A stretch of 64,000 nt of DNA from Opitutales bacterium (GTDB taxonomy: Bacteria > Verrucomicrobiota > Verrucomicrobiia > Opitutales > JAVBMG01): contig JAVBMG010000014.1 of NCBI GenBank assembly GCA_031552815.1, positions 77,251-141,250 on the forward strand, written 5' to 3'. Position numbers and translations under genes: made by a program. This document shows positions 1-64,000 of the stretch, one piece after another. The notes under the pieces are model-generated. The model had not been told where the DNA came from, made no database searches, and was given only the letters and a program-made list of their open reading frames with translations. Position 1 is the stretch's first letter, and every line of letters starts with the position of its first letter.

Positions 1-479
1 CCTTCGGACAGATGGGTGAAGTGCTCTGTATGTTCCTGATTCCGCTCTTCTTTGTCCGCCTCGGTGCAAAATGGATGCTTGCGGTCGGCATGTTCGCCTG
101 GATTCTCCGTTACGGCTTCTTCGGCTATGCCGCAAGCAGCGGAATCCTCTGGATGGTCGTTGCCGGTGTGATCCTCCACGGTATCTGTTACGACTTCTTC
201 TTTGTCACGGGGCAAATCTATACCGACCAACGGACCAGCAAGTCTGTCCGAGCGCAAGCCCAAGGCTTTCTGGTATTCCTCACGCAAGGTGTCGGCATGC
301 TCATCGGCGCACAGATCATGCAGCTGATCTACAACCGCTCCGTGAACCAATACACGGATTTGCCGAGCCGTATGGCAGAATGGGATAAATTCTGGTATAT
401 CCCGGCCATCTTTGCCGCTGTCGTGCTTGTCCTTTTCATCATTCTTTTCAAGGTCGACAAGCGTCCGGAAGCAGCGTAG
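1..479 (+). CDS. MFS nucleoside:H+ symporter-like transporter, C-terminal part (5' end lies outside the window)
   Basis: The reading frame is open to the window edge. The product is TM-rich and contains GICYDFFFVTGQIYTDQ, which resembles NupG/XapB-type transporters. The family call is from memory. Confidence 0.55.
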   Translation, partial: FGQMGEVLCMFLIPLFFVRLGAKWMLAVGMFAWILRYGFFGYAASSGILWMVVAGVILHGICYDFFFVTGQIYTDQRTSKSVRAQAQGFLVFLTQGVGMLIGAQIMQLIYNRSVNQYTDLPSRMAEWDKFWYIPAIFAAVVLVLFIILFKVDKRPEAA

Positions 480-536
480 TCCTGAAACTTTTCCACCCTA
501 GAAACCGTTAATAAAGTTTAAATTAGTTTAAATCAT

Positions 537-1181
537 ATGTCTAACGATACTAAAAATCCATCAGGCGCTTCAACCGAATCGTCTCCGCGTTTTTATCCTG
601 CAGAAAACACAAGTTCCTGCTGTTCAGACAAAGCCAAGGATTCCCAGGAATCCTGCTGCTGCAGCAAGGAAGGCCAAAACGGCTGCGGTTGCGGCTGCGA
701 AAGCAAATGCCCGTGCGCTTGCGGAAGCGCCCTGGGAGCGTTTGTGCTCAGACTCAGCGTGGGACTGATCACGCTCGTAAACGGTCTCACCAAGTTTATC
801 GGCACAAAAACTTCCTTTGTTTCCGACGGTGAATACGGCGAACGCGAAGTGATTGAGAAAGTGTTCGGGCCTTCGGCTTATTCCGCAAACATGGAAACTT
901 ACCGCAACCTGTTTTCCGGTATTTTCCCTGATTTCCTTCTCAACCTGTTCCTTGCGGTATTGGGTTATGCGCTCGTCCTCCTCGGCGTGACATTGATCCT
1001 CGGTCTTTTCAAGAAAACCAGCCTCATGCTGACAGCGTTCCTCTACATGGCGCTGATGTTCGGCTTGCTGATGATCAAGCAGGAAGCAGGCGTATGTTAT
1101 CTGGCGGTTTATCTGGCAATGATCGCAGGCGCACTTGTCCTGACCAAGAAAGACCGCATTGCTGTCTGCAAATGCTTCTAA
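537..1181 (+). CDS. DoxX-like integral membrane protein with a cysteine-rich (metallothionein-like) N-terminal tail
   Basis: ATG at 537. Residues about 28-63 read CCSDKAKDSQESCCCSKEGQNGCGCGCESKCPCAC (11 Cys). About four hydrophobic helices follow, and the protein ends in CKCF. Confidence 0.5.
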   Translation: MSNDTKNPSGASTESSPRFYPAENTSSCCSDKAKDSQESCCCSKEGQNGCGCGCESKCPCACGSALGAFVLRLSVGLITLVNGLTKFIGTKTSFVSDGEYGEREVIEKVFGPSAYSANMETYRNLFSGIFPDFLLNLFLAVLGYALVLLGVTLILGLFKKTSLMLTAFLYMALMFGLLMIKQEAGVCYLAVYLAMIAGALVLTKKDRIAVCKCF

Positions 1182-1200
1182 TATAACTACCGCTTCTATC

Positions 1201-2550
1201 ATGAAAAAGATGAATTTTCTGGCTAGCCGCCGTGATTTCTTAAAAAAGACAAGCATTCTCGGCGGTAGCATGATTCTGGGAGCTCCGGCAATACTCAACG
1301 CCCAGAATAAGAGCGATGAGGTGCTCAATATTGCTGTTGTCGGTCTCGGAGAACAGGGAACTGTTCTGCTCACCGCCATCCAGGACATCCCGAACATCAA
1401 TGTACAGGCTGTCTGCGATATCTGGAACTACAAGCTGACACCGACCCAGCGCCGCCTGAAGGCCTTGGGCAAACATGACCCGAAGGCTTATTCCGATTAC
1501 CGCGAAATGCTCGACAAGGAAAAGGGATTGCACGCGGTCGTGGTCGCCACACCGGATTTCTGGCATGCTCCCGTCACCAATGACGCATTGAAAGCGGGTC
1601 TGCATGTTTACTGCGAAAAAATGATGTCCAATACCATTGAAGGAGCCAAGTCCATGGTCCGCACCATGCGCGAGACCGGAAAGCTTCTCCAGATCGGACA
1701 CCAGCGCCGCAGCAATCCGCGCTACCGTTATGTGCTCAACGAGCTCATCAAGAAGCATAATATCACGGGACGCATCATGAATGCCAACGCGCAATGGAAC
1801 CGCGGCGTGGGCAATTCCAAGGATTTGACCTGGGACAAAAAATACGAACTGTCCAAGGAAGACCTGAGCAAATGGGGGTTTGAAAACATGTACGAATTCC
1901 GCAACTGGCGCTGGTTCAAGCGTTACGGCGGCGGACCGATCTCCGACCTCGGAGCGCACCAGATCGACATTTTCCCATGGTTCTTCCAGGGCCGTCCGAA
2001 AAGCATCATGGCTATCGGCGGGAACGAATACTACACAGGCCGCGAATTGCCGGCAAACGTGATGGTACTCTATGAATGGAACACACCGGACGGCATCGCC
2101 CGCGCATTCTACCAGGTTCTGACCACCACCAGCGCAGGCGGCGGTTACTGGGAAATGTTCATGGGAGACAACGCAGCCATCAAGATATCCGAAGACGAAA
2201 GCATCACCCGTATTTTCGGTGAAGGCCACGTGGACAAGAAAGTCTGGGACAAACTGGTTTCGGAAGGTATCCTGAAAAGGCGCAAGACGGAAGCTTACGT
2301 TGCGAAGGAAGGTGAAGACCCGCGCCTCGCAGCAAGTAAGAATGTCCCGGAATTTGACTTGCCGGTGATCTTCCGCAAACGCATTCACCAGCCGCACCTG
2401 GAGAACTTCTTTGACGCAATCCGCGGAAAAGCGCACCTGAACTGCCCGGCAGACCACGCATTTGAATGCGAATTGGCTGTCTATAAGGTACAGGAAGCAA
2501 TTGCCGCAAAGACACAGTTGCTCTTTAAGGAAGAAGACTTTATCGTGTGA
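1201..2550 (+). CDS. Gfo/Idh/MocA family oxidoreductase with a twin-arginine (Tat) signal
   Basis: N-terminus MKKMNFLASRRDFLKKTSILGG is a Tat signal. A Rossmann motif VVGLGEQG is present, and the C-terminal domain is typical of this family. The ORF track starts at 1159; ATG 1201 is preferred. Confidence 0.85.
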   Translation: MKKMNFLASRRDFLKKTSILGGSMILGAPAILNAQNKSDEVLNIAVVGLGEQGTVLLTAIQDIPNINVQAVCDIWNYKLTPTQRRLKALGKHDPKAYSDYREMLDKEKGLHAVVVATPDFWHAPVTNDALKAGLHVYCEKMMSNTIEGAKSMVRTMRETGKLLQIGHQRRSNPRYRYVLNELIKKHNITGRIMNANAQWNRGVGNSKDLTWDKKYELSKEDLSKWGFENMYEFRNWRWFKRYGGGPISDLGAHQIDIFPWFFQGRPKSIMAIGGNEYYTGRELPANVMVLYEWNTPDGIARAFYQVLTTTSAGGGYWEMFMGDNAAIKISEDESITRIFGEGHVDKKVWDKLVSEGILKRRKTEAYVAKEGEDPRLAASKNVPEFDLPVIFRKRIHQPHLENFFDAIRGKAHLNCPADHAFECELAVYKVQEAIAAKTQLLFKEEDFIV

Positions 2551-2569
2551 ACCGAATAAGATTATAAAA

Positions 2570-3298
2570 ATGAAATATTTATCCAGTCTGACCATGATCC
2601 TCGCAGCGTTCATCCTGAGCGCCTGCGGCGATGACAACAAGAATGCGCCAAAAAGCGAAGGTACACCGGCACCCAGCTCGTCTTCCGCATCCGCTCCGGC
2701 ATCGGGAAGCACGATCAAGCTCGAGATTCCTTCGGAAGAACTTATCGGCACACCGGTTCCTTTCGAACTGCCTAACCTGGCTCCAGGAGGCGTTATTTCG
2801 CACCCGGCGATCTCTATTCCCAGCGACGTGAAGAACATCGCCCTCGGAAAGGAAGTTACCAGCAGCGACGATTTCCCGATCAACGGCGAACTTGAATTCC
2901 TCACGGACGGCAAAAAACGCGCATCCGGTGAATTCGTTCTCGAACTCGGACCCGGACGCCAATGGATACAGGTTGACCTCGGCGAAAAGTCGGAAGTTTA
3001 CGGTATTGCCCTCTGGCACTTCCATTCGCAGAAGCGCGCCTATCTTGACGTCGTCATCCAGATCTCCGACGATCCTGATTTTGTAAACGGCGTAACCACA
3101 CTCTTTAATAATGATGACGATAACAGTTCCGGACTCGGCAAGGGCACAGACTATGCCTATACCGAAACCAACTCGGGATTGCTTATTGACGCAAAAAAAT
3201 CGCTCGGCCGTTATATTCGTCTTTACAGCAACGGAAATACAACCGATAAATTGAATCATTACATTGAAGTGGAAGTCTACGGACGTCCCGCCAAATAA
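2570..3298 (+). CDS. Lipoprotein with an F5/8 type C (discoidin, galactose-binding-like) domain
   Basis: Internal ATG at 2570 gives MKYLSSLTMILAAFILSAC with a lipobox. The C-terminal part (WIQVDLG...YIRLYSNGN...VEVYG) is discoidin-like. Confidence 0.6.
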   Translation: MKYLSSLTMILAAFILSACGDDNKNAPKSEGTPAPSSSSASAPASGSTIKLEIPSEELIGTPVPFELPNLAPGGVISHPAISIPSDVKNIALGKEVTSSDDFPINGELEFLTDGKKRASGEFVLELGPGRQWIQVDLGEKSEVYGIALWHFHSQKRAYLDVVIQISDDPDFVNGVTTLFNNDDDNSSGLGKGTDYAYTETNSGLLIDAKKSLGRYIRLYSNGNTTDKLNHYIEVEVYGRPAK

Positions 3299-3346: not shown

Positions 3347-3376
3347 GGCGGTAGCATGGGGGACCATGCTACCGTT
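3347..3376 (+). terminator. Hairpin built from an inverted pair of the 9-mer motif (CGGTAGCATGG-ggga-CCATGCTACCG)
   Basis: An 11-bp perfect stem with a 4-nt loop lies 50 nt after the stop at 3298. It is followed by the T-rich sequence ttacttgtttcc. A smaller hairpin (CTCCTC/GAGGAG) sits at 3305-3326. Confidence 0.4.
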
Positions 3377-3475: not shown

Positions 3476-5224
3476 ATGAGTCGTTTTTTAGCATATCTGG
3501 CATTCGTGTTTATTCTTGTCGCGGGAATCTTTGTACGCTTTGACCAGCTTTCTCTCAAGCCGCTCCACGCAGACGAAGCCGTGCAGGCGACCCAACTGTC
3601 CACATTGATGGATGAAGGTGTCTACGCCTTTAACCCCAGGCATGCGCACGGCCCGACGCTCTACTATCTTTCAGATTTCCTCCTGAAAAGCATCGGTGTG
3701 GAATCCGGAGCCGGTTTAGACGAGACAAATCTCCGGTATTTTCCCGCTCTCTGCGGATGCCTGCTGTTGCTTGTTGCGCTATGCTACCGCCGCCTGCTCA
3801 CGCCGGGAGGACTCCTGTTCGCCGGCCTCTGTTTGGCCTTTTCTCCCGCTCTGGTTTACTACAGCCGCTATTTCATACAGGAAATGTTTTTCACGCTTAC
3901 TGTCACGGTTTTTGTGATTTCATTCGGCGAACTGTTCACAAACGGCAGAACCGTCAATGAATACCCCAAATGGCTATTTCTTGTCATGGGGTGCGCACTC
4001 GGCCTTGCCCATGCCACAAAGGAAACTGTTCTCGTTTCCGGATTAGCTGTTTTTCCCGCCTTACTGTTAAGCTTTGGTCCAGGAAAAACGGCGACGGCCT
4101 TTTCGCAATTATTCAAAGGCATTCTCCGGCTCCCGATACTGATTTTCCCTATCGCGGCGATCCTCTGTTCGACGGCCTTCTATTCCTCCTTCGGCACCAA
4201 TTTTCAGGGCATTCTCGACAGTTTTACGACATTTTTCTCCTACGAAGTCATGCCAGGCCATGAAAAACCATGGTACTACTTTTTTCAGCTATGGGGCATC
4301 GGCGAACTCAGAGGCGGTTTTTATTGGGGAGAATCCATTCTTTTCCTTGGCGGCAGCATGGGTTTGATTCTCGCCCATTTTCCGTCTGCCGCAGAATACG
4401 GTAAGGATCTCAGGCCCTTGCGCTTTATCGGCATTTACGGATGGATCTGCCTGATCATCTATTCATGCGTTGCCTATAAAACACCGTGGCTCATTGTCAG
4501 CATCATTCCCTCTTTCTGTATCCTTTCAGGATACGCCTTCGGCCGCCTCACGGGTAATACGCGCAATATACAGACCCAGGCAGGCATGATACTGGCCTCC
4601 GTGCTGATCCTTGTCATCGGCATCATGCTTTCCCAGCCGATTTCCCTCGGAGCGCTTCTCTTCGGACAAAGCCAGGAAACAAAACGACTGGTTTCTGGCA
4701 TGCTACCGTCGAAGTTTGTTTTGACTGCCATTGCCTGCATTCCCGTATTCTACGGGCTCCTGTCAATTCTCATCCAGCAGATCCGCCGGCGTTACTTCAG
4801 GATTCACTGGAGGACAATGCAGGTCCTTGCTGGAAGCTTTCTCTTCCTCTTCTGCCTGTACACACTCGGCACACAGGTTTTTCTCGGGAATTACGTTTTT
4901 CATTCCGATCCGCGAAATCCTTATGCGTATTCGGCCACAGCCGAAGATATCCACCGCCTGGTCAGGGACATGAACGCATTCCGGCAGGCACACCAGGAAC
5001 CGACCGTCTACGTTTACGCCAACAACTCCTGGCCGCTTCCCTGGTATATCCGGGATTTTCCCCAGGCTGCCTACTGGAAAGACCAGACATTCCGTCCGGA
5101 CGCAGACATCTACATTTTTGTTTCCGACCGTGCTTTCCCGTTCAAGCCCGATGAGGAAAAATACACCGTGCAGTTTTACGGGTTACGCTCGGAAATTCCC
5201 GCAGCGGTTTACTACCGGAAATAA
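3476..5224 (+). CDS. Polytopic membrane glycosyltransferase-like protein (GT39/ArnT-like, TIGR03663-like)
   Basis: 582 aa with more than 10 predicted TM helices. The N-terminal LHADEA...HGPTLYY motif is typical of this family. Confidence 0.55.
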   Translation: MSRFLAYLAFVFILVAGIFVRFDQLSLKPLHADEAVQATQLSTLMDEGVYAFNPRHAHGPTLYYLSDFLLKSIGVESGAGLDETNLRYFPALCGCLLLLVALCYRRLLTPGGLLFAGLCLAFSPALVYYSRYFIQEMFFTLTVTVFVISFGELFTNGRTVNEYPKWLFLVMGCALGLAHATKETVLVSGLAVFPALLLSFGPGKTATAFSQLFKGILRLPILIFPIAAILCSTAFYSSFGTNFQGILDSFTTFFSYEVMPGHEKPWYYFFQLWGIGELRGGFYWGESILFLGGSMGLILAHFPSAAEYGKDLRPLRFIGIYGWICLIIYSCVAYKTPWLIVSIIPSFCILSGYAFGRLTGNTRNIQTQAGMILASVLILVIGIMLSQPISLGALLFGQSQETKRLVSGMLPSKFVLTAIACIPVFYGLLSILIQQIRRRYFRIHWRTMQVLAGSFLFLFCLYTLGTQVFLGNYVFHSDPRNPYAYSATAEDIHRLVRDMNAFRQAHQEPTVYVYANNSWPLPWYIRDFPQAAYWKDQTFRPDADIYIFVSDRAFPFKPDEEKYTVQFYGLRSEIPAAVYYRK

Positions 5225-5285
5225 AAATCAAAAGAAAGCAAATGACCGGCTTGTCCGTTTTTCACGAACCCATACCTTATTAAAC

Positions 5286-6176
5286 ATGCCTAAACAGAAA
5301 TTCAATTTCTCACGTCATGCTACCGCCACCACATGGAATATCCATCTGTTCCATGAAGACAGGGATTTCGCTGAGTCTATCGCCAACGAATCCTTCCGTA
5401 AAATCGAGAAACTTGAAGCTGACCTCAGTCGCTTCAAAACCGGAAGCGATATCATGCGCATAAACCGGATGGAAGTCGACGAAACCATCACGATTTCCCA
5501 GGAAACCTACGACTGCCTCAGGGAAGCCATGGTATTCGCCGCACTGACAAACGGCGGGTTTGATCCGGGTCTGGGCACCGTCATGGACATGATACGCACG
5601 AGCCAGGGAACCTTTCCGGAAGCATTCGTATCCGGCGTTTCCGATCCCGGACAGTTGCTGATCCATGAGGACAAGCCCGCGGTCACCTGCCTCTCCGAAG
5701 GTATAAACATTGACCTTGGCGGTATCGGAAAAGGATTCATCATTGATCATATTGTATCCTTCATCCAGGAAGAACACGGCATCGAATGCGGCATGGTTGA
5801 CGGCGGAGGCAGCAGTATTTACGCATGGCATAACGGGGAAACAACGTGGAAATTCCGTCTGGGCAACGAAAATGATCTGAGGCGCATCGACCTGAACGGT
5901 TTCTCCATCAGTTGCTCCAGTTTTTCCGAAAAAGGAGCACACATCATCAATCCGATCACCAAACAGTTTGCCCCGCTCGAAAAGCAGGTATGGACCTTTG
6001 CCCCCTGCGCCACCTGGGCCGACGCACTCTCCACGGCATTCATGGTGCTCAACGAGGAGGAGACGAAACGCTGCTGCGACGAAAACACAGACCTTCAGAT
6101 CGGCTGTCTGATCGAGACAAAGAAAAACGCCAAAAAACTGAAAGCATTCGGCTGGCTGCCAAACTTTGACAAATAA
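5286..6176 (+). CDS. apbE: FAD:protein FMN transferase (ApbE family)
   Basis: DLGGIGKGFIIDH motif, SRFKTGSDIMRINR near the N-terminus, and ADALSTA near the C-terminus. The internal ATG at 5286 is preferred to the ORF-track start. Confidence 0.75.
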   Translation: MPKQKFNFSRHATATTWNIHLFHEDRDFAESIANESFRKIEKLEADLSRFKTGSDIMRINRMEVDETITISQETYDCLREAMVFAALTNGGFDPGLGTVMDMIRTSQGTFPEAFVSGVSDPGQLLIHEDKPAVTCLSEGINIDLGGIGKGFIIDHIVSFIQEEHGIECGMVDGGGSSIYAWHNGETTWKFRLGNENDLRRIDLNGFSISCSSFSEKGAHIINPITKQFAPLEKQVWTFAPCATWADALSTAFMVLNEEETKRCCDENTDLQIGCLIETKKNAKKLKAFGWLPNFDK

Positions 6177-6208
6177 ACGATAACAGGCTCCTGTTACCGT
6201 CGCATACT

Positions 6209-7015
6209 TCAAATCTTTTCTTCGGTTACCGTATTTGTCAGGCTGCCGATACTGTCGATTGTCACGGTCACCACATCGTCGGGCTGCAAAAAGAGACGCG
6301 GATCACGCGCCACGCCGACACCGCTCGGTGTTCCCGTCAGAATGACGCTGCCGGCAGGCAGTGTCGAACTTCCGCTCAGAAAAGCGATAATCTCCGCGAC
6401 CGAGAAAAGCATGTCCGAGGTGTTTGCCTCCTGCATGACTTTTCCGTTGAGCACCGTGCTGATTTTCAGATTTTGCGGATCGGGAATATCCTCCTTTGTG
6501 ACCAGACAGGGTCCCAAGGGACAAAAACTGTCAAATGATTTTGCACGGCAGAATTGGCCGCCGCCCAGTGTTTTCCCCTGCCATTCACGCGCACTCACAT
6601 CATTGGCGCAGGTATATCCCAAGACATAACTCAGGGCATTCTCCGGCGTCAGGTTTTTTGCCGTTCTTCCGATCACCACCGCTAATTCGCATTCGTAATC
6701 GACTTTTGTGCTCGCAAGAAAACGCGGCAATACGATCGGCTGTTCATGAGCATTCACGGCATTGATCGCCTTCATAAAGATCACCGGCTTGTTCGGTATT
6801 TCCGCGTGTGTCTCCTCAATGTGTTTTTTATAATTATGCCCCACCGCAAAAATCTGTACCGGATCAATCGGCGGAAGAAAACGCACGACCTCGGCTATTT
6901 CATCGGTTACCTTGAAGTTACCGGAACTGCCGTCGATTTTACAGAGCATCCCGTTGGCACCCTCGGTGGCAAACCCGACCGTGTTGTTTTTATCTGCATA
7001 ACGATAAAGCTTCAT
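6209..7015 (-). CDS. Fumarylacetoacetate hydrolase (FAH) family protein
   Basis: PVIFMKA...DYECELAVVIG...GTPSGVG motifs. ATG at 7015; the ORF-track start at 7024 is a GTG. Confidence 0.8.
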   Translation of the reverse strand: MKLYRYADKNNTVGFATEGANGMLCKIDGSSGNFKVTDEIAEVVRFLPPIDPVQIFAVGHNYKKHIEETHAEIPNKPVIFMKAINAVNAHEQPIVLPRFLASTKVDYECELAVVIGRTAKNLTPENALSYVLGYTCANDVSAREWQGKTLGGGQFCRAKSFDSFCPLGPCLVTKEDIPDPQNLKISTVLNGKVMQEANTSDMLFSVAEIIAFLSGSSTLPAGSVILTGTPSGVGVARDPRLFLQPDDVVTVTIDSIGSLTNTVTEEKI

Positions 7016-7090: not shown

Positions 7091-8380
7091 TTACAGAATA
7101 TCTCCGATGGAACCGAAATTCGGATCAAAAAGCCGTTTGTACATGCGGATTGCCTGGGAATCCGTCAGCGAAGCGAGATAATCGCAAATCAGGCGTGGTT
7201 TCTGTCCATCGTCCGCGGCAAGAACCCATGAGTGATAACGATCAGGCAAGAGCGGCGTACTCTGCCCGCTGTAATTATCCAGCAATGTTTCAAACAACTG
7301 CCTCAGCATGTTACCGCCCTTATAGCGCATCTGCAAAATCTGCGGCGACTGGAAAATCAAATCAAAGGCCAACCGTTTGTACACATTGCATTCCTCACGG
7401 ATTGACGGATCAATTGCCAGGTCGAACTTATGACGGTTTGTCGGCACTTTTTCACTGCCTGGCCTGTGTTTCAAGGAACATGCCTTGATAAAACTGCCGA
7501 CCTTCAGGCTAAACTCGGTTTCCGTGCTGCCTTCATTGATACAGTCTATCAGACGCCCAAGGATGGCTTCCGTTGTCTGCGGCAAGTGTTTTTTCTCAAT
7601 GGATGCTACCGTGCTTTGGCGTTTCAGCCATTTGCGGATATTGCTTTCATTCAGAAACTTTCCGCGCAACCCATCCTGGATGTCATGCAACGAATAAGCC
7701 GTATCATCCGCCCAATCCATGATCTGGCATTCGATGCTTTTCTGCATCATTGCACTGAGTTTCTGCTTATCGGCTCCCTCGCAGCAGAAATCCAACCAGC
7801 AGGCCTGTTCATCGAATAAAAAATGGTTTTTCGGCGGTAATTGTCTTTCCCCGGCAAAAGCATCCCTGTGAAGCCGTTTGTATTTCAGGATGCCGTCAAT
7901 CAACGCACGGGTCGGTCGCATCCCATAGGAACCTTCGTCACGCTCGTAAATGGTTTCCGTCAGCAAACGCAACGTCTGCGCATTGCCCTCAAAGCCGCCC
8001 TGTTCGCACATCAGTTCATTCAAGGCTGCCTCACCCGTATGGCCGAACGGCGGATGGCCGATATCATGCGCCAGACCGACAGCCTCGCACAAATCCGAAT
8101 CAATGTAAAAATCGGGTCTCAACGCCGGATTACTTGCCTTTAAGTATTCACAAATCGAACGGCAGATTCGGGCGACTTCCATCGAATGCGTCAGCCGCGT
8201 ATGGTAAAAGTCATATTCGCCTGTCTGGAATACCTGGGTTTTTGATTGCAGCTTCCGGAACGCATAGGAAAAAAGAATCCGGTCGCGGTCGATCTGGAAC
8301 GGAGTCCGGTGATCGCTGCCGCGCGATTTTCTGCTCTCGGCGTAAGCAATATCGAAATCATTGTAAAACGCATTATCCAT
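7091..8380 (-). CDS. dgt: dGTP triphosphohydrolase-like HD-domain protein
   Basis: RTPFQIDRDRILFS, HTRLTHSMEV and HDIGHPPFGH motifs. Confidence 0.85.
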   Translation of the reverse strand: MDNAFYNDFDIAYAESRKSRGSDHRTPFQIDRDRILFSYAFRKLQSKTQVFQTGEYDFYHTRLTHSMEVARICRSICEYLKASNPALRPDFYIDSDLCEAVGLAHDIGHPPFGHTGEAALNELMCEQGGFEGNAQTLRLLTETIYERDEGSYGMRPTRALIDGILKYKRLHRDAFAGERQLPPKNHFLFDEQACWLDFCCEGADKQKLSAMMQKSIECQIMDWADDTAYSLHDIQDGLRGKFLNESNIRKWLKRQSTVASIEKKHLPQTTEAILGRLIDCINEGSTETEFSLKVGSFIKACSLKHRPGSEKVPTNRHKFDLAIDPSIREECNVYKRLAFDLIFQSPQILQMRYKGGNMLRQLFETLLDNYSGQSTPLLPDRYHSWVLAADDGQKPRLICDYLASLTDSQAIRMYKRLFDPNFGSIGDIL

Positions 8381-8619
8381 CAGGCAAAAGAATATGCTCT
8401 CCTTTAAAACAGATTTTCTTTAAAAAGCGAACAGCAAAGCGACGGTAGCATACAGGAAGCAAAATCCCCGCGAGCCAAACTCGTTGTACCTTCACGGCTT
8501 CACCTATCCGATTTTCCTCCGTGTTATCCTGTTCTGTTTCTTTTCTTATAACTATTCTTGCCGGCAGGTGTTTTAAATACGAACGGAAACAAATTCGATA
8601 TCCTATTTTTATCACAGTC

Positions 8620-46140: not shown

Positions 46141-46192
46141 AAGATTTTTTGAGCGACAAGGGTTGCCATTCAGGTTTATAATCGCCGGCAAG

Positions 46193-52564: not shown

Positions 52565-54109
52565 CTATTTATCCCACGGCAACCTGGCAACGATACGGTT
52601 GTGTTCCCAGACATTGAACGGCGTAAATATCTTTCCCGGATTCAATATGCCGTTGGGATCGAGCGCCTGCTTGACTGATTGCATGGAGTCAATCTCCGCC
52701 TGGCTGTACTGTAAGGACAGGAACGGAGTCTTTGCCAACCCGATACCATGCTCGCCGCTGATCGCTCCGCCAAGTGCAACGGCCTTTTCCATGAGTTCAA
52801 GCACCGCCTTCTCTGCGTGCGCGCTTTGAGCCGCGTCCGCCTTATTGTACATGATGTTCACATGAAAATTTCCGTCGGCAGCATGGCCGAAAGTCGGTGT
52901 CGCCAATCCGTAGCGTCTTTTCAAATCGAGCGTAAACGCAATCAGTTCCGGTTGGGTATGGATAGGCACCACCACATCCTCATTCAGTTTTGTGTCGCCC
53001 ATCTGAAACATCGCCTGCGAACAGTTTCGGCGGATTTCCCAAAGCCGTTCGCTTTCTGATTCCGTATCGGCTTCTTTCCATGCTACCGTCTTTTGCCTGA
53101 TGACTTCCTGCAAGCGGATCTTTTCTGATTCAATCGCATCCGATGAACCGTCCAGCTCAATCAATAATAACGAAACGGTAGCATCGGAAATGCCCAGAAG
53201 CGATCCGTGCTTTTTCAACGTACAGGCAACTGTCTGCGAATCAAGGAATTCCAGGATGGAAGGAAGCACACGCGCCTTCACAATGGCCTGCACCGCCTCC
53301 AAGGCCGCGTTCTCTGATGCAAACACGGCAAGGCATGTCCATCGTGTTTCCGGCAAAGGAACCAAGCGTAAAATAGCCTCGGTCACAATACCGAGACAGC
53401 CCTCTGAACCAATCATCAGGTCGCGCATATTAAACCCGGCAGAATACTTCCGGACAGCCCGTCCGAACGCAAACGGTTCGCCATTGGCAAAAAAACCTTT
53501 CAACCCAAGCACATAATCGCGGGTTACGCCGTATTTTGCACCGCGCAATCCGCCGGCATTCGTGGCAATGCTGCCGCCGACGGTTGCATAACGCAAAGAA
53601 GACGGATCGGGCGGATAAAACCACTGCTGTTTTGCGGCAGCATCCTGCAACGCCGCGATGGTGACGCCTGCCTGGGCAAATGCAATACCGGCAACCGCAT
53701 CAATGCGCACTCCGTTCAGCGGCGAGAAATCCAGGACCCACCCCCCGTTCAGCGGTGTGGCGGAACCGGTCGTTGAGGAACCTGCACCACGGCTGGTTAC
53801 CGGAATACCATACTGATTCGCAACCTTGAGAATAGCCCCGACAGCAGAAGCCTCCCGTATACGGAAAAGCACATCCGGCAACCGTGATATTTTCAGGCTG
53901 TCAAAAGATGCCGCGAGCCTCGCTGAATCCTCATGGACCACTTCTGCTCCCGGTAAATGGTTCAACTGCTCCAATGCGAGAATATGCTTTTTCTCATTTT
54001 CCACAAAGAACACAATAGCCTGTATTGCAAAAAATTCACGCTCTATTCTTATGGGAAATAATTGAGGAAATTCTTCCCGTTTCTCTGATGCTACCGTTAT
54101 TTCCTGCAT
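52565..54109 (-). CDS. FAD-linked oxidase (GlcD / D-lactate dehydrogenase-like)
   Basis: FAD_binding_4 motif IPVTSRGAGSSTTGS and C-terminal GEHGIGLAK. ATG 54109 is preferred, because the longer ORF-track start would overlap glgB. Confidence 0.8.
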   Translation of the reverse strand: MQEITVASEKREEFPQLFPIRIEREFFAIQAIVFFVENEKKHILALEQLNHLPGAEVVHEDSARLAASFDSLKISRLPDVLFRIREASAVGAILKVANQYGIPVTSRGAGSSTTGSATPLNGGWVLDFSPLNGVRIDAVAGIAFAQAGVTIAALQDAAAKQQWFYPPDPSSLRYATVGGSIATNAGGLRGAKYGVTRDYVLGLKGFFANGEPFAFGRAVRKYSAGFNMRDLMIGSEGCLGIVTEAILRLVPLPETRWTCLAVFASENAALEAVQAIVKARVLPSILEFLDSQTVACTLKKHGSLLGISDATVSLLLIELDGSSDAIESEKIRLQEVIRQKTVAWKEADTESESERLWEIRRNCSQAMFQMGDTKLNEDVVVPIHTQPELIAFTLDLKRRYGLATPTFGHAADGNFHVNIMYNKADAAQSAHAEKAVLELMEKAVALGGAISGEHGIGLAKTPFLSLQYSQAEIDSMQSVKQALDPNGILNPGKIFTPFNVWEHNRIVARLPWDK

Positions 54110-54214
54110 TTTCCCATGTATTTTACCGAAAAACCCGTGTTTATCTTTGCGCTCGACGCTTTTTGGATGAACTCCTACAATTTCCGTAAAAACTATACCT
54201 CTGCTTTTAAACTT

Positions 54215-56494
54215 ATGAAACCAATTCCTCAATCCCCGGAAAAACCATCACGCAAGCAAAAATCCGTGAAATCCGAATCCATACAAAAACGAAAAGAACC
54301 TTCCGACCTGGAACTGCTTCTGTCCGTGCATCATTCCCAGCCTCACAGGTTTCTCGGCATGCATCCCTTCACGCAAGGCAAGACCAAGGGCGTGGTCGTC
54401 AGGGCTTACCTGCATGACGCCATCAATTGCGAGGTCGTCGACGCCATCACGGATAAACGCTACGAGCTGACGCGCATCGACAATACGGATTTGTTCGAAG
54501 GCTTTATCAGCGAACAGAAAAACGTATTTCCCTATCGTCTTCGTATCGAACGGCACAACGGCGAAATAAAACAGTTCTATGATCCTTATTCATTTTTACC
54601 GACAATAAGCGATCAGGACCTGTATCTTTTCAACGAAGGCACGGAGCATAAAGCGTATAAAAAACTGGGCGCACGTCCGCGCGTAATCGACGGTGTCGTC
54701 GGTGTTTCCTTTGCCGTATGGGCCCCGAGCGCAAAGCGCGTTTCCGTGGTAAGCGAATTCAATAATTGGGACGGACGCTACCATCCCATGCGCATACTGG
54801 GCAATTCAGGAGTCTGGGAAATTTTCATCCCCGGCATGCGGGCCGGAACAAAATACAAATACGAGGTTCTTTGTTCCGATGATACCATGCGACTGAAAAC
54901 CGATCCTTACGGAACATCCTTTGAAGCGCCGCCTTACAATTCCTCCATTGTTTGCGATGTGGATAATGATTACCAATGGAATGACAACGGCTGGATCAAT
55001 TACCGCGACTCCACGGACTGGCAAAAGAAACCGGTTTCGGTTTACGAGGTGCATCTTGGTTCGTGGAAACGCAATACCGAGGACGGGAACCGTCCGTACA
55101 CTTACCGTGAAATCGCCCACGATCTTGCCAACTATGTCAAAGAGCAAGGATTCACCCACGTCGAGTTTCTCCCTGTTGCGGAACACCCGTTCGAAGGATC
55201 ATGGGGTTATCAGGTAACGGGTTATTTTGCGCCGACACATCGTTTCGGCTCCCCGCATGATTTTAAATACCTCGTGGATACGCTCCATCAAAACGGTATC
55301 GGTGTCATCATGGACTGGGTTCCGGGTCACTTTCCGCGCGATGCGTTTGCCTTGGCCGAATTTGACGGCACCCATCTTTACGAACACGCCGATCCGCGTC
55401 AGGGTGAACACAAGGAATGGGGTACATTCATTTTCAATTATGACCGCCGCGAGGTGCGTTCTTTTCTTCTAGGCAGCGCGTTGGCCTGGCTCGACCGCTA
55501 CCACATCGACGGCTTGCGCGTAGACGCGGTAGCATCCATGCTTTATCTTGATTACGGACGCAAAGACGGCGAATGGATACCAAACCCTTACGGCGGCCAC
55601 GAGAATATCGGTGCGCTGGAATTCCTGCGTTACACGAACGATACTATCCACGAGTATTTCCCTGGCGCACTCATGATTGCCGAGGAATCAACCTCCTGGC
55701 CGGGCGTAACCAAGCCAACTTCTGAACTCGGACTGGGATTCGACCTGAAATGGAACATGGGCTGGATGCATGATACCATCCACTACATCAATCAGGACTC
55801 CCTGTTCCGCAAGCATTACCACAACTCGCTCACCTTCGGCATGCTTTACCAGTACTCCGAAAACTTCATGCTCGTTTATTCGCACGATGAAGTGGTTCAC
55901 GGTAAAGGTTCCATGCTGAACAAGGTCTCCGCCGGCAGCATCAAGGAAAAAGCACAAACCCTGCGAGCCCTCTATGCTTTCATGTGGACATGGCCGGGTA
56001 AGAAAACGCTGTTCATGGGCGGTGAATTCGGACAATCCCGCGAATGGAAATACGACGCAGGACTCGACTGGTTCCTGCTCCAATACAAGGATCATTCGGG
56101 CATACAAGCGGTTGTTAAAGACCTGAATTATTTTTACCGCAATAATCCCGGACTCGCCGAGAGGGAAAACGATTCGCATGCATTCACATGGATCAATGTA
56201 GGCGACTGGCAACAGTCCGTACTGAGTTTTGCGCGTTTTGGAAACACTCCGGACGAGATGTACCTGGTTGTCACCAACTTCACCCCGGTCATGCGCCAAA
56301 GATATCGTATCGGTGTACCGAAAGGCGGCTACTGGACAGAGCTTATCAATACAAATGCCGGAGAATACGGCGGGAGCGGAGAAGGCAACCTGGGAGGCGT
56401 ATCAAGCGAAACTATCCCATGTGACGGACGCAACGACAGCATCGAAATCACATTGCCTGGATTAACGACTGTTATCTTCAAGCTTCACGTTTAA
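54215..56494 (+). CDS. glgB: 1,4-alpha-glucan branching enzyme
   Basis: GH13 motifs (DWVPGHF, GLRVDAVASMLY, AEESTSWP, YSHDEVVHGK). ATG 54215 is preferred. Confidence 0.9.
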   Translation: MKPIPQSPEKPSRKQKSVKSESIQKRKEPSDLELLLSVHHSQPHRFLGMHPFTQGKTKGVVVRAYLHDAINCEVVDAITDKRYELTRIDNTDLFEGFISEQKNVFPYRLRIERHNGEIKQFYDPYSFLPTISDQDLYLFNEGTEHKAYKKLGARPRVIDGVVGVSFAVWAPSAKRVSVVSEFNNWDGRYHPMRILGNSGVWEIFIPGMRAGTKYKYEVLCSDDTMRLKTDPYGTSFEAPPYNSSIVCDVDNDYQWNDNGWINYRDSTDWQKKPVSVYEVHLGSWKRNTEDGNRPYTYREIAHDLANYVKEQGFTHVEFLPVAEHPFEGSWGYQVTGYFAPTHRFGSPHDFKYLVDTLHQNGIGVIMDWVPGHFPRDAFALAEFDGTHLYEHADPRQGEHKEWGTFIFNYDRREVRSFLLGSALAWLDRYHIDGLRVDAVASMLYLDYGRKDGEWIPNPYGGHENIGALEFLRYTNDTIHEYFPGALMIAEESTSWPGVTKPTSELGLGFDLKWNMGWMHDTIHYINQDSLFRKHYHNSLTFGMLYQYSENFMLVYSHDEVVHGKGSMLNKVSAGSIKEKAQTLRALYAFMWTWPGKKTLFMGGEFGQSREWKYDAGLDWFLLQYKDHSGIQAVVKDLNYFYRNNPGLAERENDSHAFTWINVGDWQQSVLSFARFGNTPDEMYLVVTNFTPVMRQRYRIGVPKGGYWTELINTNAGEYGGSGEGNLGGVSSETIPCDGRNDSIEITLPGLTTVIFKLHV

Positions 56495-56545: not shown

Positions 56546-56600
56546 AATTTTTCACTGTCTCATGCTACCGCCAATAAACGGCAGCACGGTTTTTATTTTC

Positions 56601-59860: not shown

Positions 59861-59897
59861 AAAACCCCTTACATTCCGGTAAGGGGTTTTTGTTTTT
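59861..59897 (+). terminator. Intrinsic terminator after the lectin gene
   Basis: aaaaCCCCTTACattccgGTAAGGGGtttttgttttt. An 8-bp stem with a 6-nt loop is followed by a T tract. Confidence 0.85.
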
Positions 59898-59940
59898 ACG
59901 ATTGATACACCATTTACCGACGGTAGCATGTGATCCTACC

Positions 59941-61230
59941 ATGAAAATGATTTCCATTGATTCGCTTGGCGAATGTACATTCCCATCACCCTTAATTGAG
60001 CGGGCCTCCCGCTTCTATAATGACGAAGGCATTGCCCGGCATATACGTTCGAATCATCTTTCAGAATGCAATTCCATTAATGACATCGAATGCTTTGAGC
60101 TGGCTGGCGCGAGAGAGAAACTTTACTTCAACCCCAGGGAAACCACGGTCGGTATCGTCACCTGCGGAGGCATTTGCCCCGGTCTGAACGACGTTATCAG
60201 GGCTATCACTTTTTGCGCCCTTGAAGAATATAAGGTAAAGCGTGTTCTCGGTTTCCGCTATGGATACGAAGGGCTTGTCGCAAAATACTACCACCAACCT
60301 GCAGAACTCACGCTGGACAGCACGGACGAAATCCATGAGAAAGGCGGTACCATCCTGAAATCCTCCCGCGGACCGCAACCATCCGAGGAAATCGTACAGA
60401 CACTGATTCATTACGGGGTCGATATTCTTTTCACCATCGGCGGTGACGGTACGCAACGCGGTGCAAGCGATATCGCAAAGGAAGTCGAGAAACGGGGATT
60501 GAAAATTGCCGTCATCGGCATTCCCAAAACCATTGACAACGATATCAACAATGTCGAGCGTTCCTTCGGATTCATGACTGCTGTCGAAACGGCAAGCCAA
60601 GTCATCACTTCCGCCCACTCGGAAGCAAAGGCATTCCGCAACGGCGTGGGACTGGTCAAGGTTATGGGACGAAATGCCGGATGGATTGCGGCGGCGGCAT
60701 CACTGGCAAACAGCAATGTCAACTTCTGCCTGATCCCGGAAGTGCCTTTTGATTTTGACGGGCCAAACGGTTTCTTTTATCACCTGAAAAAACGTCTGGA
60801 GCAAAAGGACCACGCCGTCATTGTTGTTGCGGAAGGTGCAGGACAGAATCTTTTCACCGACAATGCCCAATTCGACAAATCAGGCAACAAGAAGCTGGGA
60901 GACATCGGCATCCTGCTCCGCGACCAGATGAATAAGCGTTTCGCAGAGATGAAAGAGGAAATAAATGTGAAATATTTCGACCCAAGCTATCTGATCCGCA
61001 GCACAGCAGCAAACGCCGTCGATTCCCAATATTGCCTTGGTTTGGGCTACAATGCGGTGCATGCCGGCATGGCCGGAAAAACAAACCTTGTCATTTCTTC
61101 CCATTGCAACCGCCTGATCCACGTGCCCATTTCCATGATAAGCGGAGGGAAAACCGTTGATCCGAACGGGTGGCTGTGGCAGACAGTGCTCCAGTCGGTC
61201 CACCAACCGACACACATGTGCAACCAATAG
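59941..61230 (+). CDS. pfk: 6-phosphofructokinase (PfkA family)
   Basis: TCGGICPGLN, IGGDGTQRGA and PKTIDNDI motifs. GGDG rather than GGDD leans towards ATP- rather than PPi-dependence (inference). Confidence 0.85.
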   Translation: MKMISIDSLGECTFPSPLIERASRFYNDEGIARHIRSNHLSECNSINDIECFELAGAREKLYFNPRETTVGIVTCGGICPGLNDVIRAITFCALEEYKVKRVLGFRYGYEGLVAKYYHQPAELTLDSTDEIHEKGGTILKSSRGPQPSEEIVQTLIHYGVDILFTIGGDGTQRGASDIAKEVEKRGLKIAVIGIPKTIDNDINNVERSFGFMTAVETASQVITSAHSEAKAFRNGVGLVKVMGRNAGWIAAAASLANSNVNFCLIPEVPFDFDGPNGFFYHLKKRLEQKDHAVIVVAEGAGQNLFTDNAQFDKSGNKKLGDIGILLRDQMNKRFAEMKEEINVKYFDPSYLIRSTAANAVDSQYCLGLGYNAVHAGMAGKTNLVISSHCNRLIHVPISMISGGKTVDPNGWLWQTVLQSVHQPTHMCNQ

Positions 61231-61236: not shown

Positions 61237-61270
61237 AAAAAGACGGTAGCGTAATGCTACCGTCTTTTTT
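61237..61270. terminator. Bidirectional intrinsic terminator whose stem is made of the 9-mer motif core
   Basis: AAAAAGACGGTAGC-gtaat-GCTACCGTCTTTTT. A 14-bp stem lies between convergent pfk (stop 61230) and the PPIase gene (stop 61289). Confidence 0.85.
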
Positions 61271-62026: not shown

Positions 62027-63112
62027 ATGGGAAATTCTTTCGGCAAGCTTTTCAGTATCACCACATTCGGGGAAAGTCACGGCGGAGGCATCGGTGTCGT
62101 CGTTGACGGGTGCCCTCCCATGCTACCGTTGGACGAGAACGAAATCCAGGCAGAGCTTGATCGCCGCCGCCCGGGGCAAAGCAGTGTCTCCACGCCACGC
62201 AAGGAAGCAGACAGGGTCCGGTTCCTCTCCGGGGTCTTCGAGGGAAAAACCCTGGGAACGCCCATAGCCATGATCGTCGATAACACGGATGCCCGCCCTG
62301 CAGCCTATGATGAAATGCGCTCCAAGTTCAGGCCGTCCCACGCAGACTTCACCTATCAGGAAAAATACGGAATCCGGAACCATGAAGGCGGCGGACGTTC
62401 ATCCGCACGGGAAACCATCGGCCGTGTCGCTGCCGGTGTTATCGCAAAAAAAATACTGTCATCACTGGCCCACGTGGAAATCCGTGCCTATGTGGAAAGC
62501 ATCCATACGATTTCCATGGCTCCCTCACAGGAATTTCCCTCATTCGAAGCGGTTGAAGCTACCGCCATACGCTGTCCGGATCATGCTACCGCAAAGAAAA
62601 TGATTGCTGCCGTCGAAAACGCAGCGACCCACGGAGATTCGCTTGGGGGCGTCATTGCCTGCCGTATCCGCAACGTACCGCGTGGACTGGGGGAACCTGT
62701 TTTTGACCGGATTGATGCCGATCTGTCCAAGGCGATGCTCTCCATTCCGGCAAGCAAAGGCATTGAATTCGGTCTGGGATTCAAGGCAAGTGAACTGAAA
62801 GGCAGCGAACACAATGATTTATTCGAGATCCGGGAAGGGAAAATACGGACCCAAACCAATAAGGCCGGCGGTATGCTTGGAGGCATAACGACCGGGGAAG
62901 AGATTTTCTTCCGGGTCGCATTCAAGCCCACAGCCACCATCTCGCAGCCGCAAAAAACGGTTGATACCAGCGGCAGAGAAACCGAACTGATCGGGAGAGG
63001 AAGGCATGATCCGTGCGTCCTGCCACGCGCAGTACCGATCATTGAGGCCATGGCTGCCCTGGTACTTGTCGACCACCTTATGCGCAATCATGCCCAGAAC
63101 AGATTGCTTTAA
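62027..63112 (+). CDS. aroC: Chorismate synthase
   Basis: [26 protein letters not shown] and RHDPCV motifs. ATG 62027 is preferred. Confidence 0.95.
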
Positions 63113-63191
63113 ATCCAAGCTTCGTTAACATTATTCAGGTATCCGTTTGAAATAAAGCTATTTTGATTTTTCATCTCTAATTGTCTTCATC

Positions 63192-63971
63192 ATGTATCTC
63201 ATTATCGGAACAAAAAACAGCGGACGAAGAGAAATCCTTTTCGATCTGATAAACAGCCCGGATCGTATCTCCAACGCAAAAATTTTTCTTGCCAAAGCGG
63301 AATCCCCGGATGCTTTTGATGAAAAAATAGCGGCGCTTCACCACAGTACCATCATTCGGTACGAACAGGAATTGTTTCAGGAAATACTGGAAACCGATCA
63401 TCACGACGCTGATGTTTTTCTGATACTGAACAGCCGCGAGGACATGGTGGATCAGCTGGAAACAGCAGCAACCATCCTACCCCAAAGCCAGAATACGCTC
63501 GACCGTATTCTCTTCGTCATGGACTGCGATCTTGCCATGCGCGAAACAAGGCTTAAACGCTGGTTTGAAGCCGCAACCCATTTTGCCGATTGCGTATTGC
63601 TCAATAAACGGAGCAATGTGACGCCGGGATGGATGCGCGACTGGCTGGGCCATTTTGAAAAGGAACGCTATCCGACACTGTTCACCTTTGTTAAAAAAGG
63701 CCGCGTCGAAAACCCGGATCTGGTTCTCAGCACGACCCCGTTGCGCATGACGCTTGCCTTTGAGGAAGATGACAGCGTAACGGAAGAAACCAACGCCTCC
63801 TGGAAAAGCCTGGCCGAACATATTGACGATGATACCGTTTTCACAGACGACGCGGAAGATGAGGAAGATAAAGACGACGATGAGGTCACGGAACAAGACC
63901 CATACTTCGAGCGTATTCACAACGGAACAAGAAAGATTCACCTTCCCGATCCGAACAAGTTCATAGAGTAA
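63192..63971 (+). CDS. Hypothetical protein with CobW/G3E-GTPase-like architecture, a degenerate Walker A and an acidic C-terminal tail
   Basis: IIGTKNSGRREIL sits where G3E proteins have GxxGSGKTT. The pattern DVFLILNS...ILFVMDCD...ADCVLLNKRS resembles G3E switch and NKxD regions. DDAEDEEDKDDDE tail. Confidence 0.4.
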   Translation: MYLIIGTKNSGRREILFDLINSPDRISNAKIFLAKAESPDAFDEKIAALHHSTIIRYEQELFQEILETDHHDADVFLILNSREDMVDQLETAATILPQSQNTLDRILFVMDCDLAMRETRLKRWFEAATHFADCVLLNKRSNVTPGWMRDWLGHFEKERYPTLFTFVKKGRVENPDLVLSTTPLRMTLAFEEDDSVTEETNASWKSLAEHIDDDTVFTDDAEDEEDKDDDEVTEQDPYFERIHNGTRKIHLPDPNKFIE

Positions 63972-64000
63972 GTATTCAAAAAAACGGTAGCATGGAAATG

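Follow-up and report, generated by a model that had tools for sequence, protein, structure and literature searches.

The locus and its host

The 64-kb stretch of contig JAVBMG010000014.1 analysed here in full, called the window below, is ordinary core chromosome in which one nine-base word, ATGCTACCG (CGGTAGCAT on the opposite strand), recurs far beyond what composition or coding content can explain. Its 52 curated gene calls, about 92% of the window, include lepA, topB, xseA, recN, tex, panC, panD, nadB-like, hisF-like, prmC and rpe genes, and further glgB, pfk, aroC, a membrane pyrophosphatase gene and several glycoside hydrolase genes. Rfam and tRNA scans of the window return one tRNA-Ser as their sole match. 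A recC-recB pair lies directly upstream of window position 1 (L083:1768-8520).

The relatives of LepA (71-76% identical to Puniceicoccaceae and to Opitutales metagenome-assembled genomes, MAGs), of RecN (at most 55% identical to named relatives, e.g. Cerasicoccus and Opitutales MAGs) and of the GH92 protein place the host, on protein similarity, among Opitutales/Puniceicoccaceae-like Verrucomicrobiota. Among 5.8 billion clustered proteins there is one other moderately close organism, a sister species in run SRR26434396 (identity to the source 78% for RecN, 80% for GH92, 91% for Tex and 51% for RecB), represented here by three contigs (L081, L237 and L241) with a total of 30.2 kb. Logan contigs identical to the window (SRR23967709, SRR23967707) lengthen the source stretch to 76.7 kb.

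Abundance of the word

The window holds 45 exact copies, 26 on the plus strand and 19 on the minus strand. These are exactly the numbers of the original prediction, four of whose coordinates are corrected here (4700 for 4699, 14675 for 14676, 52001 for 52011 and 53080 for 53090), the rest being right. Each copy is listed with its own strand and its context, gene span and gene strand in brackets, and the residues read where the gene crosses it.

1263-1271, minus: Gfo/Idh/MocA oxidoreductase gene (1201-2550, plus), antisense, G-G-S-M
3349-3357, minus: intergenic, left arm of hairpin 3347-3376
3366-3374, plus: intergenic, right arm of hairpin 3347-3376
3781-3789, plus: membrane protein gene (3476-5224, plus), sense, C-Y-R
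4700-4708, plus: membrane protein gene (3476-5224, plus), sense, M-L-P
5317-5325, plus: ApbE-family gene (ORF 5118-6176, plus), sense, H-A-T
7603-7611, plus: HD-domain phosphohydrolase gene (7091-8380, minus), antisense, T-V-A-S
8443-8451, minus: intergenic, between divergent genes
9365-9373, plus: GalB-type beta-galactosidase gene (8521-11211, plus), sense, H-A-T
9473-9481, plus: GalB-type beta-galactosidase gene (8521-11211, plus), sense, H-A-T
11851-11859, minus: Mur-ligase-like gene (11553-12854, plus), antisense, A-V-A
12304-12312, minus: Mur-ligase-like gene (11553-12854, plus), antisense, A-V-A
13950-13958, minus: hypothetical gene (13687-14259, minus), sense, D-A-T
14675-14683, plus: hypothetical gene (14256-14708, minus), antisense, A-V-A; followed by the variant ATGTTACCG at 14689
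16995-17003, minus: intergenic, between divergent lepA and panC
17717-17725, plus: panC (17119-17967, plus), sense, D-A-T
21205-21213, plus: inositol monophosphatase-family gene (20489-21247, minus), antisense, T-V-A
21758-21766, plus: topB (21337-23964, minus), antisense, D-G-S-M
28049-28057, plus: xseA (27638-28990, plus), sense, M-L-P
28876-28884, minus: xseA (27638-28990, plus), antisense, D-G-S-I
28942-28950, minus: xseA (27638-28990, plus), antisense, D-G-S-M
31481-31489, plus: recN (30630-32300, plus), sense, C-Y-R; the sister's orthologous site is CAGCTATCA, without the word
31846-31854, plus: recN (30630-32300, plus), sense, H-A-T; conserved at the sister's orthologous site
34252-34260, plus: intergenic, between divergent Nramp and MoxR genes
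34405-34413, minus: MoxR ATPase gene (34340-35326, plus), antisense, R-G-S-I; source-only
36153-36161, plus: DUF58 gene (35595-36494, plus), sense, M-L-P; shared with the sister
36646-36654, minus: hypothetical 170-aa gene (36510-37022, plus), antisense; source-only
36905-36913, minus: hypothetical 170-aa gene (36510-37022, plus), antisense; source-only
38507-38515, minus: tex (38047-40371, plus), antisense, A-V-A-S; shared with the sister
46269-46277, plus: DUF4185 gene (46193-47395, plus), sense, D-A-T; shared with the sister
47418-47426, minus: intergenic, between tandem plus-strand genes
47875-47883, minus: rpe (47508-48167, plus), antisense, P-V-A
49728-49736, plus: aminotransferase gene (49507-50604, minus), antisense, T-V-A
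50772-50780, plus: intergenic, its first base 11 nt upstream of the start of a hisF-type gene (50783)
52001-52009, plus: prmC (51592-52428, plus), sense, H-A-T
53080-53088, plus: FAD-linked oxidase gene (52565-54109, minus), antisense, T-V-A
53176-53184, minus: FAD-linked oxidase gene (52565-54109, minus), sense, D-A-T
54088-54096, plus: FAD-linked oxidase gene (52565-54109, minus), antisense, T-V-A
55527-55535, minus: glgB (54116-56494, plus), antisense, A-V-A
56562-56570, plus: intergenic, between convergent glgB and pyrophosphatase genes
59921-59929, minus: pfk (59890-61230, plus), antisense, T-V-A
61254-61262, plus: intergenic, right arm of hairpin 61237-61269
62120-62128, plus: aroC (62027-63112, plus), sense, M-L-P
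62583-62591, plus: aroC (62027-63112, plus), sense, H-A-T
63985-63993, minus: intergenic, left arm of hairpin 63983-64007, between convergent genes

ATGCTACCG tops the 9-mer ranking of the window by a wide margin; the runners-up are its own one-base variants and extensions, and the next unrelated 9-mers are far rarer. Dinucleotide-preserving shuffles give an expectation of 0.33 copies, with a maximum of 3 in 100 shuffles, and Markov models of orders 1 to 4 expect 0.28, 0.38, 1.2 and 3.9, the higher orders being contaminated by the word copies themselves. The excess of roughly 90-fold claimed for the word at the outset holds against the simple nulls and drops to about 12-fold against the order-4 model. 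Within genes, which contain 35 of the 45 copies (78%), permuting synonymous codons in a way that preserves each protein and each gene's codon usage leaves 1.6 +/- 1.2 copies (maximum 6 in 500 trials), and shuffling codon order leaves 0.43. The enrichment survives codon-aware and Markov nulls alike. Half of the protein-compatible sites for the word (35 of 70) are occupied, and the pressure on it is far stronger than ordinary selection on scattered sites. The remaining ten copies (22%) fall in the 8% of the window that is intergenic, an enrichment of about 2.8-fold per base; the intergenic excess reported earlier is real, its figures (11 copies in 9%) being slightly off.

Genic copies are read as M-L-P, x-A-T, C-Y-R, V-A and G-S-M/I, that is, in all five stop-free frames, and never in the frame that contains TAG, just as had been argued when the word was said not to be a protein motif; the H-A-T reading then given at 5317 belongs to the plus-strand ApbE ORF, which is the real gene. 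Relative to transcription, 16 copies in the window are sense and 19 antisense, without bias. A peptide motif or codon bias as the cause is ruled out by the five frames and the synonymous-codon null. Because the word occupies five frames, stands in both orientations relative to transcription and has unrelated flanks, it is a DNA-level signal.

Flanks, variants and constraint

Over 15 bases on each side, sequence information is confined to positions -2 to +2, as confirmed with 84 copies: C or T at -2, C at -1 (24 of 44), a pyrimidine (Y) at +1 (42 of 44) and C at +2 (30 of 44), the last in addition to the preferences first noted. With these preferences the free-standing unit measures about 11-12 bp and reads c-ATGCTACCG-y-c. 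With its flanks otherwise unrelated, the word is not part of a longer repeat; a longer repeat, a repetitive extragenic palindrome or miniature inverted-repeat transposable element (REP/MITE) or another dispersed repeat is rejected, with no conservation beyond +/-2 nt and 78% of the copies in genes.

One-mismatch relatives of the word number 75 in the window, against about 13 expected, and are unevenly distributed along it. Tolerated positions are 4 (28 copies, 18 of them C-to-T), 6 (18 copies, 14 of them A-to-G), 2 (13 copies, 10 of them T-to-A) and 1 (7 copies); constrained positions are 3 and 5 (4 copies each), 9 (one copy) and 7 and 8 (none). The sister has no variants at positions 3, 7, 8 and 9 and two at position 5. 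G3, C7, C8 and G9 are essentially invariant in both species, and T5 nearly so. Since uniform decay would give C-to-T changes at C7 and C8 too, the spectrum resembles the range of substitutions that a DNA-binding protein would tolerate. Matches to the degenerate pattern [AG][TA]GNT[AG]CCG number 131, against 15 expected. In the window the commonest variant is ATGTTACCG (C-to-T at position 4) with 18 copies, the over-representation and 14 of the 15 positions given for it originally being correct and one position off by 1; ATGCTGCCG has 14 copies. The sister has zero ATGTTACCG in 30 kb. In the source, ATGTTACCG and ATGCTGCCG could represent a second dialect, relaxed specificity or decay. The first three codons of xseA, ATG TTA CCG, are the commonest word variant, and a hairpin with a perfect 8-bp stem, TAACATGA-TTTA-TCATGTTA at 27624-27646, overlaps the xseA start codon.

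Hairpins built from inverted pairs

Inverted pairs of the word, or of its variants, form the following hairpins.

3347-3376, plus: word pair in inverted orientation, its 13-bp stem closed by a GGGA loop and followed by a T-rich tail; fold -30.2 kcal/mol, z -4.0
61237-61269, no strand assigned: AAAAAGACGGTAGC-GTAAT-GCTACCGTCTTTTT, 14-bp stem; fold -21.2 kcal/mol, z -4.2
63983-64007, no strand assigned: inverted word pair between convergent genes, its right arm ATGCTACCG (63998-64006) past the window end
6176-6201, no strand assigned: inverted variant pair GACGGTAACAGG-AGCC-TGTTATCGTT, between convergent ApbE and FAA-hydrolase genes

The first of these lies 49 nt past the stop of the gene at 2570-3298 and is terminator-like. 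The second, the word with a partial inverted copy and A5/T5 flanks between convergent pfk and peptidyl-prolyl isomerase genes, looks like a bidirectional terminator. The third is complete in L082 (4820-4885), where it folds at -19.8 kcal/mol (z -5.4). All three intergenic inverted-pair hairpins have T-runs and stand at gene ends, in agreement with the use of inverted pairs in terminators that had been proposed. Two of the six intergenic hairpins with a perfect stem of at least 8 bp wholly within the window use the word core; with the hairpin that crosses the window end included, about 3 of 7 strong intergenic hairpins use the word. The other seven intergenic word copies are single and, on folding, unstructured. 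The arms of the hairpin at 6176-6201 are word variants (CGGTAACA / TGTTATCG), which would mean that variants too serve as terminator stems.

Distribution among genomes

The extended source stretch contains 55 copies, 1 per 1.39 kb. The sister contigs contain 29 copies in 30.2 kb (1 per 0.85-1.15 kb), and ATGCTACCG is the top 9-mer in all three despite their GC content of 43-45% as against 49.5% in the source; the overall density in both species is about 1 per 1.1-1.4 kb, which would extrapolate to some 2,000-3,000 copies in a genome of 3-4 Mb. As controls we took the best 80 lepA loci among GTDB representatives, 25 of them from other Verrucomicrobiota, Lentisphaerota and Kiritimatiellota. Each of the 80, including these 25 loci from the wider Planctomycetes-Verrucomicrobia-Chlamydiae (PVC)/Verrucomicrobiota group, has 0-1 copies, and the top dispersed 9-mer of a control locus amounts to just 5-6 copies per ~20 kb. 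In L017 and L065, likewise controls, the frequent 9-mers proved to be tandem repeats. In L014, L076 and L238 dispersed 9-mers are enriched, though no more than moderately: CCGCTGAAA occurs 7 times in 14.5 kb of a Lentisphaerae MAG (L014), CCGGATCGA 11 times in 21.8 kb of a Thermoanaerobaculia MAG (L076) and the ribosome-binding-site-like CGGAGGAAA 10 times in 14.6 kb of a GC-rich MAG (L238), all far weaker than ATGCTACCG. When JGI metagenomes and IMG/VR were scanned for the inverted-pair signature, 152 loci and no further carrier lineage emerged; 139 of these held two seed copies only, and the rest were local hairpins or tandem repeats. The word is a private, shared property of a small, rare clade.

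Conservation and turnover

In codon alignments of seven orthologous genes from source and sister (9.6 kb, 74% nucleotide identity), the word occupies 16 sites: 4 in both species, 4 in the source alone and 8 in the sister alone. Half of the source copies are conserved in the sister, as against a neutral estimate for nine bases of about 6% (0.736^9; somewhat higher at conserved amino acids). Because conservation exceeds the neutral level, word copies are being maintained. At the same time new copies have arisen in both lineages since their split, and several lineage-specific sites come with amino-acid replacements (A-S-Y-Q versus T-C-Y-R and R-A-T-V versus H-A-T-V in RecN, D-G-K-I versus D-G-S-I in GH92). 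Of the compatible sites in the window that do not carry ATGCTACCG, about half are a single step away from it. In LepA and the pyrophosphatase, the most conserved proteins, 0 of 7 compatible sites are occupied, a small sample.

The longest word-free stretch of the window, 38,516-46,268, includes a segment specific to the source.

42530-46190, no strand assigned: word-free segment with a rhamnosidase-like gene (42601-44919) and a hypothetical gene (45601-46140), absent from the sister's syntenic contig L237

This segment lies in the lowest-GC stretch of the window (0.44-0.46), its GC skew is reversed, and its left edge coincides exactly with a break in a Logan assembly; it is probably a later insertion. 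By synteny the DUF1266 gene at 37,023-37,916 likewise has no counterpart in L237. The segments that the sister lacks carry 0 copies in 4.55 kb against 3.3 expected (P about 0.04; small-sample, post hoc).

Genome-maintenance genes and other features

In the maintenance genes recB, recC, topB, xseA and recN the word has a density of 0.97 copies per kb, and elsewhere in coding sequence one of 0.54 (P about 0.04; small-sample, post hoc). RecB itself is only 51% identical between the two word-bearing species, against mostly 78-92% for other shared proteins, and at most 38% identical to all other database entries, its best matches being scattered across phyla; recB is either fast-evolving or horizontally acquired.

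The GH92 alpha-mannosidase gene (40492-42510) adjoins the source-specific segment. Its product's best matches outside the clade are 59-65% identical, the only named ones being Bacteroides thetaiotaomicron proteins (59%), closer than RecN is to its relatives in the order (at most 55%). The pattern points to an ancient transfer between phyla, possibly with Bacteroidota as donor, and to a gut-type habitat; the clade is uncultured and probably gut-associated. A recent import of GH92 is rejected, as the sister has an 80% identical ortholog that carries a word copy and only the adjoining rhamnosidase-like segment is source-specific. Two tandem crcB (fluoride channel) genes occupy 19646-20418, with no fluoride riboswitch found by Rfam at the gathering threshold. 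Two shadow ORFs mislead naive gene calling: 1240-2913 (minus, 557 aa), antisense to the real Gfo/Idh/MocA gene, and 5310-6212 (minus, 300 aa), antisense to the real ApbE gene.

Interpretation

We rank first, and hold with moderate confidence, the reading that the word evolved independently as a signal for the uptake of self-DNA or for recombination and was spread by molecular drive. In combination, frame-independent pressure, a strict sub-core, clade-private occurrence, continued gain and conservation of copies, half-saturated sites, terminator stems and the sparing of seemingly young DNA are known from the DNA uptake sequences (DUS) of Neisseriaceae and the uptake signal sequences (USS) of Pasteurellaceae, and it is this that puts an uptake or recombination signal ahead. 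Hallmarks of such a signal seen here are an abundance of about 1 per kb beyond composition and coding, use of all permissible frames, intergenic excess, terminator pairs, and a clade-limited distribution with turnover; every sequence-level hallmark that can be tested is present or points the right way, strand bias excepted, so that the sequences partly support this reading. The DUS/USS-like character first proposed for the word is retained as regards density, frames, orientations, terminator pairs, clade sharing and turnover, and softened as regards a lack of polarity.

The word would act as a species-group-specific recognition word on double-stranded DNA, driven throughout the core chromosome of a small Opitutales/Puniceicoccaceae-like clade to a density of about 1 copy per 1.1-1.4 kb. 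In the natural-transformation apparatus, a DNA receptor at the surface or in the periplasm would preferentially bind word-bearing fragments, and homologous recombination of the fragments taken up would swap word-less alleles for word-bearing ones. Copies would build up by molecular drive wherever they are tolerated, in stop-free frames, permissive protein segments and intergenic DNA, and some inverted pairs would be co-opted as terminator stems. The recogniser would thus be part of a DNA-uptake machine, with biased uptake and recombination as the driving force, which is how DUS and USS are explained (biased uptake followed by homologous recombination, i.e. molecular drive; PMC7811141, PMC2397512, PMC3630211).

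Several observations weigh against this reading, strand bias first among them. In 107 kb pooled from both species and oriented to negative GC skew, 54 copies of ATGCTACCG lie on the C-rich strand and 30 on the opposite one; this share of 64% is distinct from 50% (P = 0.012) and also from 75% (P = 0.03), whereas base composition (the C:G ratio) alone predicts about 54:46. By contig the counts are 33:22 in the source and 7:0, 7:7 and 7:1 in the sister (21:8 in total). The 26:19 split first given for the window is right, and the absence of polarity claimed with it is overstated: the pooled counts show a moderate but significant bias, weaker than that of Chi or of FtsK-orienting polar sequences (KOPS). 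Pure uptake drive does not obviously predict it. Real uptake sequences do show orientation biases within genes (PMC2346458); the moderate strand bias could also reflect a Chi-like or other DNA-binding role. Other contrary points are that copies are randomly spaced, with a coefficient of variation of 1.01, the even spacing sometimes cited for USS not being seen; that one-off variants outnumber exact copies in the source (93:55), looser than reported for DUS (PMC3630211), while the sister has fewer (23:29); and that the tests on islands and maintenance genes are small-sample and post hoc. No competence or pilus genes (comEC, comEA, dprA, type IV pilus, secretin or DNA-binding pilin) occur in the 64-kb window and ~13 kb of flanks; ComEC is nearly universal in bacteria (PMC6299819), so that its presence alone would not discriminate. 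A literature search did not find natural transformation described in Verrucomicrobiota. Searches for uptake sequences or competence in Verrucomicrobia gave nothing relevant, those for the word string itself gave primers only, and no such signal was found outside two proteobacterial families or in Verrucomicrobiota, which bears out the statement that none was described for a PVC-like lineage.

A broader alternative, which we consider unlikely, is that the word is not an uptake signal but the trace of an undescribed genome-wide, sequence-specific drive or self-marking system. This could take the form of a private signal for the divergent RecBCD, or of gene conversion or repair that rewrites near-matches; either would act on an asymmetric word of 9-11 bp, mildly prefer one replication strand and be strong enough to saturate half of the permissible coding sites. 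If not an uptake signal, the word would be an unexplained signal of similar strength throughout the genome, and no less interesting.

The position-specific constraint resembles a protein recognition site, and the word is spread window-wide in both orientations with 4 of the 10 intergenic copies between divergent genes, as would suit a high-copy site for an abundant chromosomal protein (nucleoid-associated, condensin-loading or segregation) kept for chromosome organisation. We nevertheless regard this role as quite unlikely. No nucleoid or segregation protein is known to recognise an exact 9-mer that recurs about once per kb and lies mostly inside genes. Individual sites would be under very weak selection, although they are close to saturated and alter protein sequences; apart from the general intergenic excess, promoters are not favoured over terminators or coding DNA, and for the lack of the word in younger DNA this role offers no reason but time, which every model shares.

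The strand bias, 54:30 overall and 21:8 in the sister, together with the recB and recC genes directly upstream of the window, also brings in a Chi-like hotspot or "self" signal for the clade's RecBCD, which, read on one strand, would switch the nuclease to recombination and would be selected genome-wide. The divergence of RecB (51% between the word-bearing species, at most 38% to others) fits co-evolution with a private signal, and known Chi densities span a range that takes in 1 per 1.1-1.4 kb. Even so, this is a very doubtful explanation. The bias lies significantly under 75%, with one 15-kb sister contig at 7:7; known Chi sites have 5-8 nt and are only modestly over-represented; a word of 9-11 nt that fills half of the compatible coding sites and forces amino-acid changes is unlikely to result from weak per-site selection for repair; and terminator inverted pairs are not a Chi feature.

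Very improbable, too, is a by-product of sequence-directed repair or modification of the kind represented by HIP1, in which near-matches are converted without DNA uptake, whether by a methyltransferase with a very-short-patch-type mismatch endonuclease or by other biased gene conversion. All-frame hyper-abundance and above-neutral conservation are also described for HIP1 (PMC4390886). The commonest source variant, with 18 copies, is C-to-T at position 4, the change expected from deamination of a methylated cytosine, and about half of the unoccupied compatible sites are one step away. The word, however, is non-palindromic, unlike HIP1, and the sister with zero ATGTTACCG shows that the position-4 pattern is not constant. 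Typical methyltransferase targets are shorter than this word, and known very-short-patch repair effects on word frequencies are under 2-fold. An artefact (chance, codon or peptide bias, dispersed-repeat fragments or assembly error) has a practically negligible probability, with all nulls rejected more than 10-fold, five frames, unrelated flanks and the same word in independent assemblies of two species from different sequencing runs.

Sequence-specific DNA uptake is so far known from two proteobacterial families only. Were the uptake-signal reading true, the word may mark a third, independent case of bacteria preferring their own species' DNA, and would show that self-DNA preference has evolved repeatedly, also outside Proteobacteria; it would be a strong hint of natural transformation in Verrucomicrobiota, and an independent system to test whether molecular drive alone builds such signals. 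ATGCTACCG can be used as a near-unique barcode that assigns metagenomic contigs to this clade, and its inclusion in donor DNA could be a handle for making the clade genetically tractable.

Comparison with known systems

Chi sites resemble the word in being non-palindromic and more frequent than expected in core-genome DNA, and the word adjoins RecBCD genes and has a 64% strand bias; it is longer, far more enriched and much less polar than Chi, and stands also in inverted pairs. The polar words KOPS and AIMS (architecture imparting sequences) are skewed above ~80-90% toward dif, against 64% here. HIP1 (GCGATCGC) is, like the word, hyper-abundant in all frames and between genes, lineage-specific and conserved above neutral, and illustrates that a word of this kind need not have a proven uptake role (PMC4390886); it is palindromic and linked to orphan methyltransferases, whereas the word is asymmetric and not self-complementary.

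The closest likenesses are to the two families of uptake words, to which a genome survey of 2025 (177 genomes; bioRxiv 10.1101/2025.10.24.684340) and a terminator atlas of 2026 (PMC13020248) are both still confined. Pasteurellaceae USS (AAGTGCGGT / ACAAGCGGT) share with the word a 9-bp core, a density of about 1 per kb, opposed pairs as terminators, far stronger constraint on a few core bases than on the others, and a build-up that molecular drive explains (PMC7811141); the ~2.8-fold intergenic enrichment per base is a further likeness. The word differs from USS in its core, in having no AT-rich flanks (only -2/-1 and +1/+2 are informative) and in its phylum.

Neisseriaceae DUS (GCCGTCTGAA, eight dialects, with the minor pilin ComP as receptor) likewise occur about once per kb, in both orientations and in coding and non-coding DNA, form inverted-pair terminators, are shared within a clade, are conserved yet turning over and are denser in maintenance genes (PMC3630211, PMC2397512, PMC13020248), ongoing gain being described for them as well (PMC2397512). 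DUS are rare in recently acquired DNA of Neisseria, and here the word is missing from segments that look recently acquired. Both have an invariant sub-core within a longer motif; the DUS core is defined by an invariant CTG at positions +6 to +8 and A at +10 in a 10-12-mer (PMC3630211). The word has CCG where DUS has CTG, no GAA tail in its flank logo, and a host in Verrucomicrobiota rather than a Neisseriaceae host with ComP. Its GCTACC, like the A that stands two bases upstream, recurs in the Eikenella corrodens dialect, inferred as GCTACCTGAA from PMC3630211, a likeness that is probably coincidence because the word is without the CTG core. Terminators that use the uptake word make up 22-37% in Pasteurellaceae and Neisseriaceae, similar to the share of about 3 of 7 here (PMC13020248), and the enrichment of known uptake words in DNA repair and RecBCD functions (bioRxiv 10.1101/2025.10.24.684340) parallels the 0.97 versus 0.54 copies per kb of the maintenance genes. 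By its sequence, then, the word belongs to neither the DUS nor the USS family, while its manner of occurrence resembles that of both.

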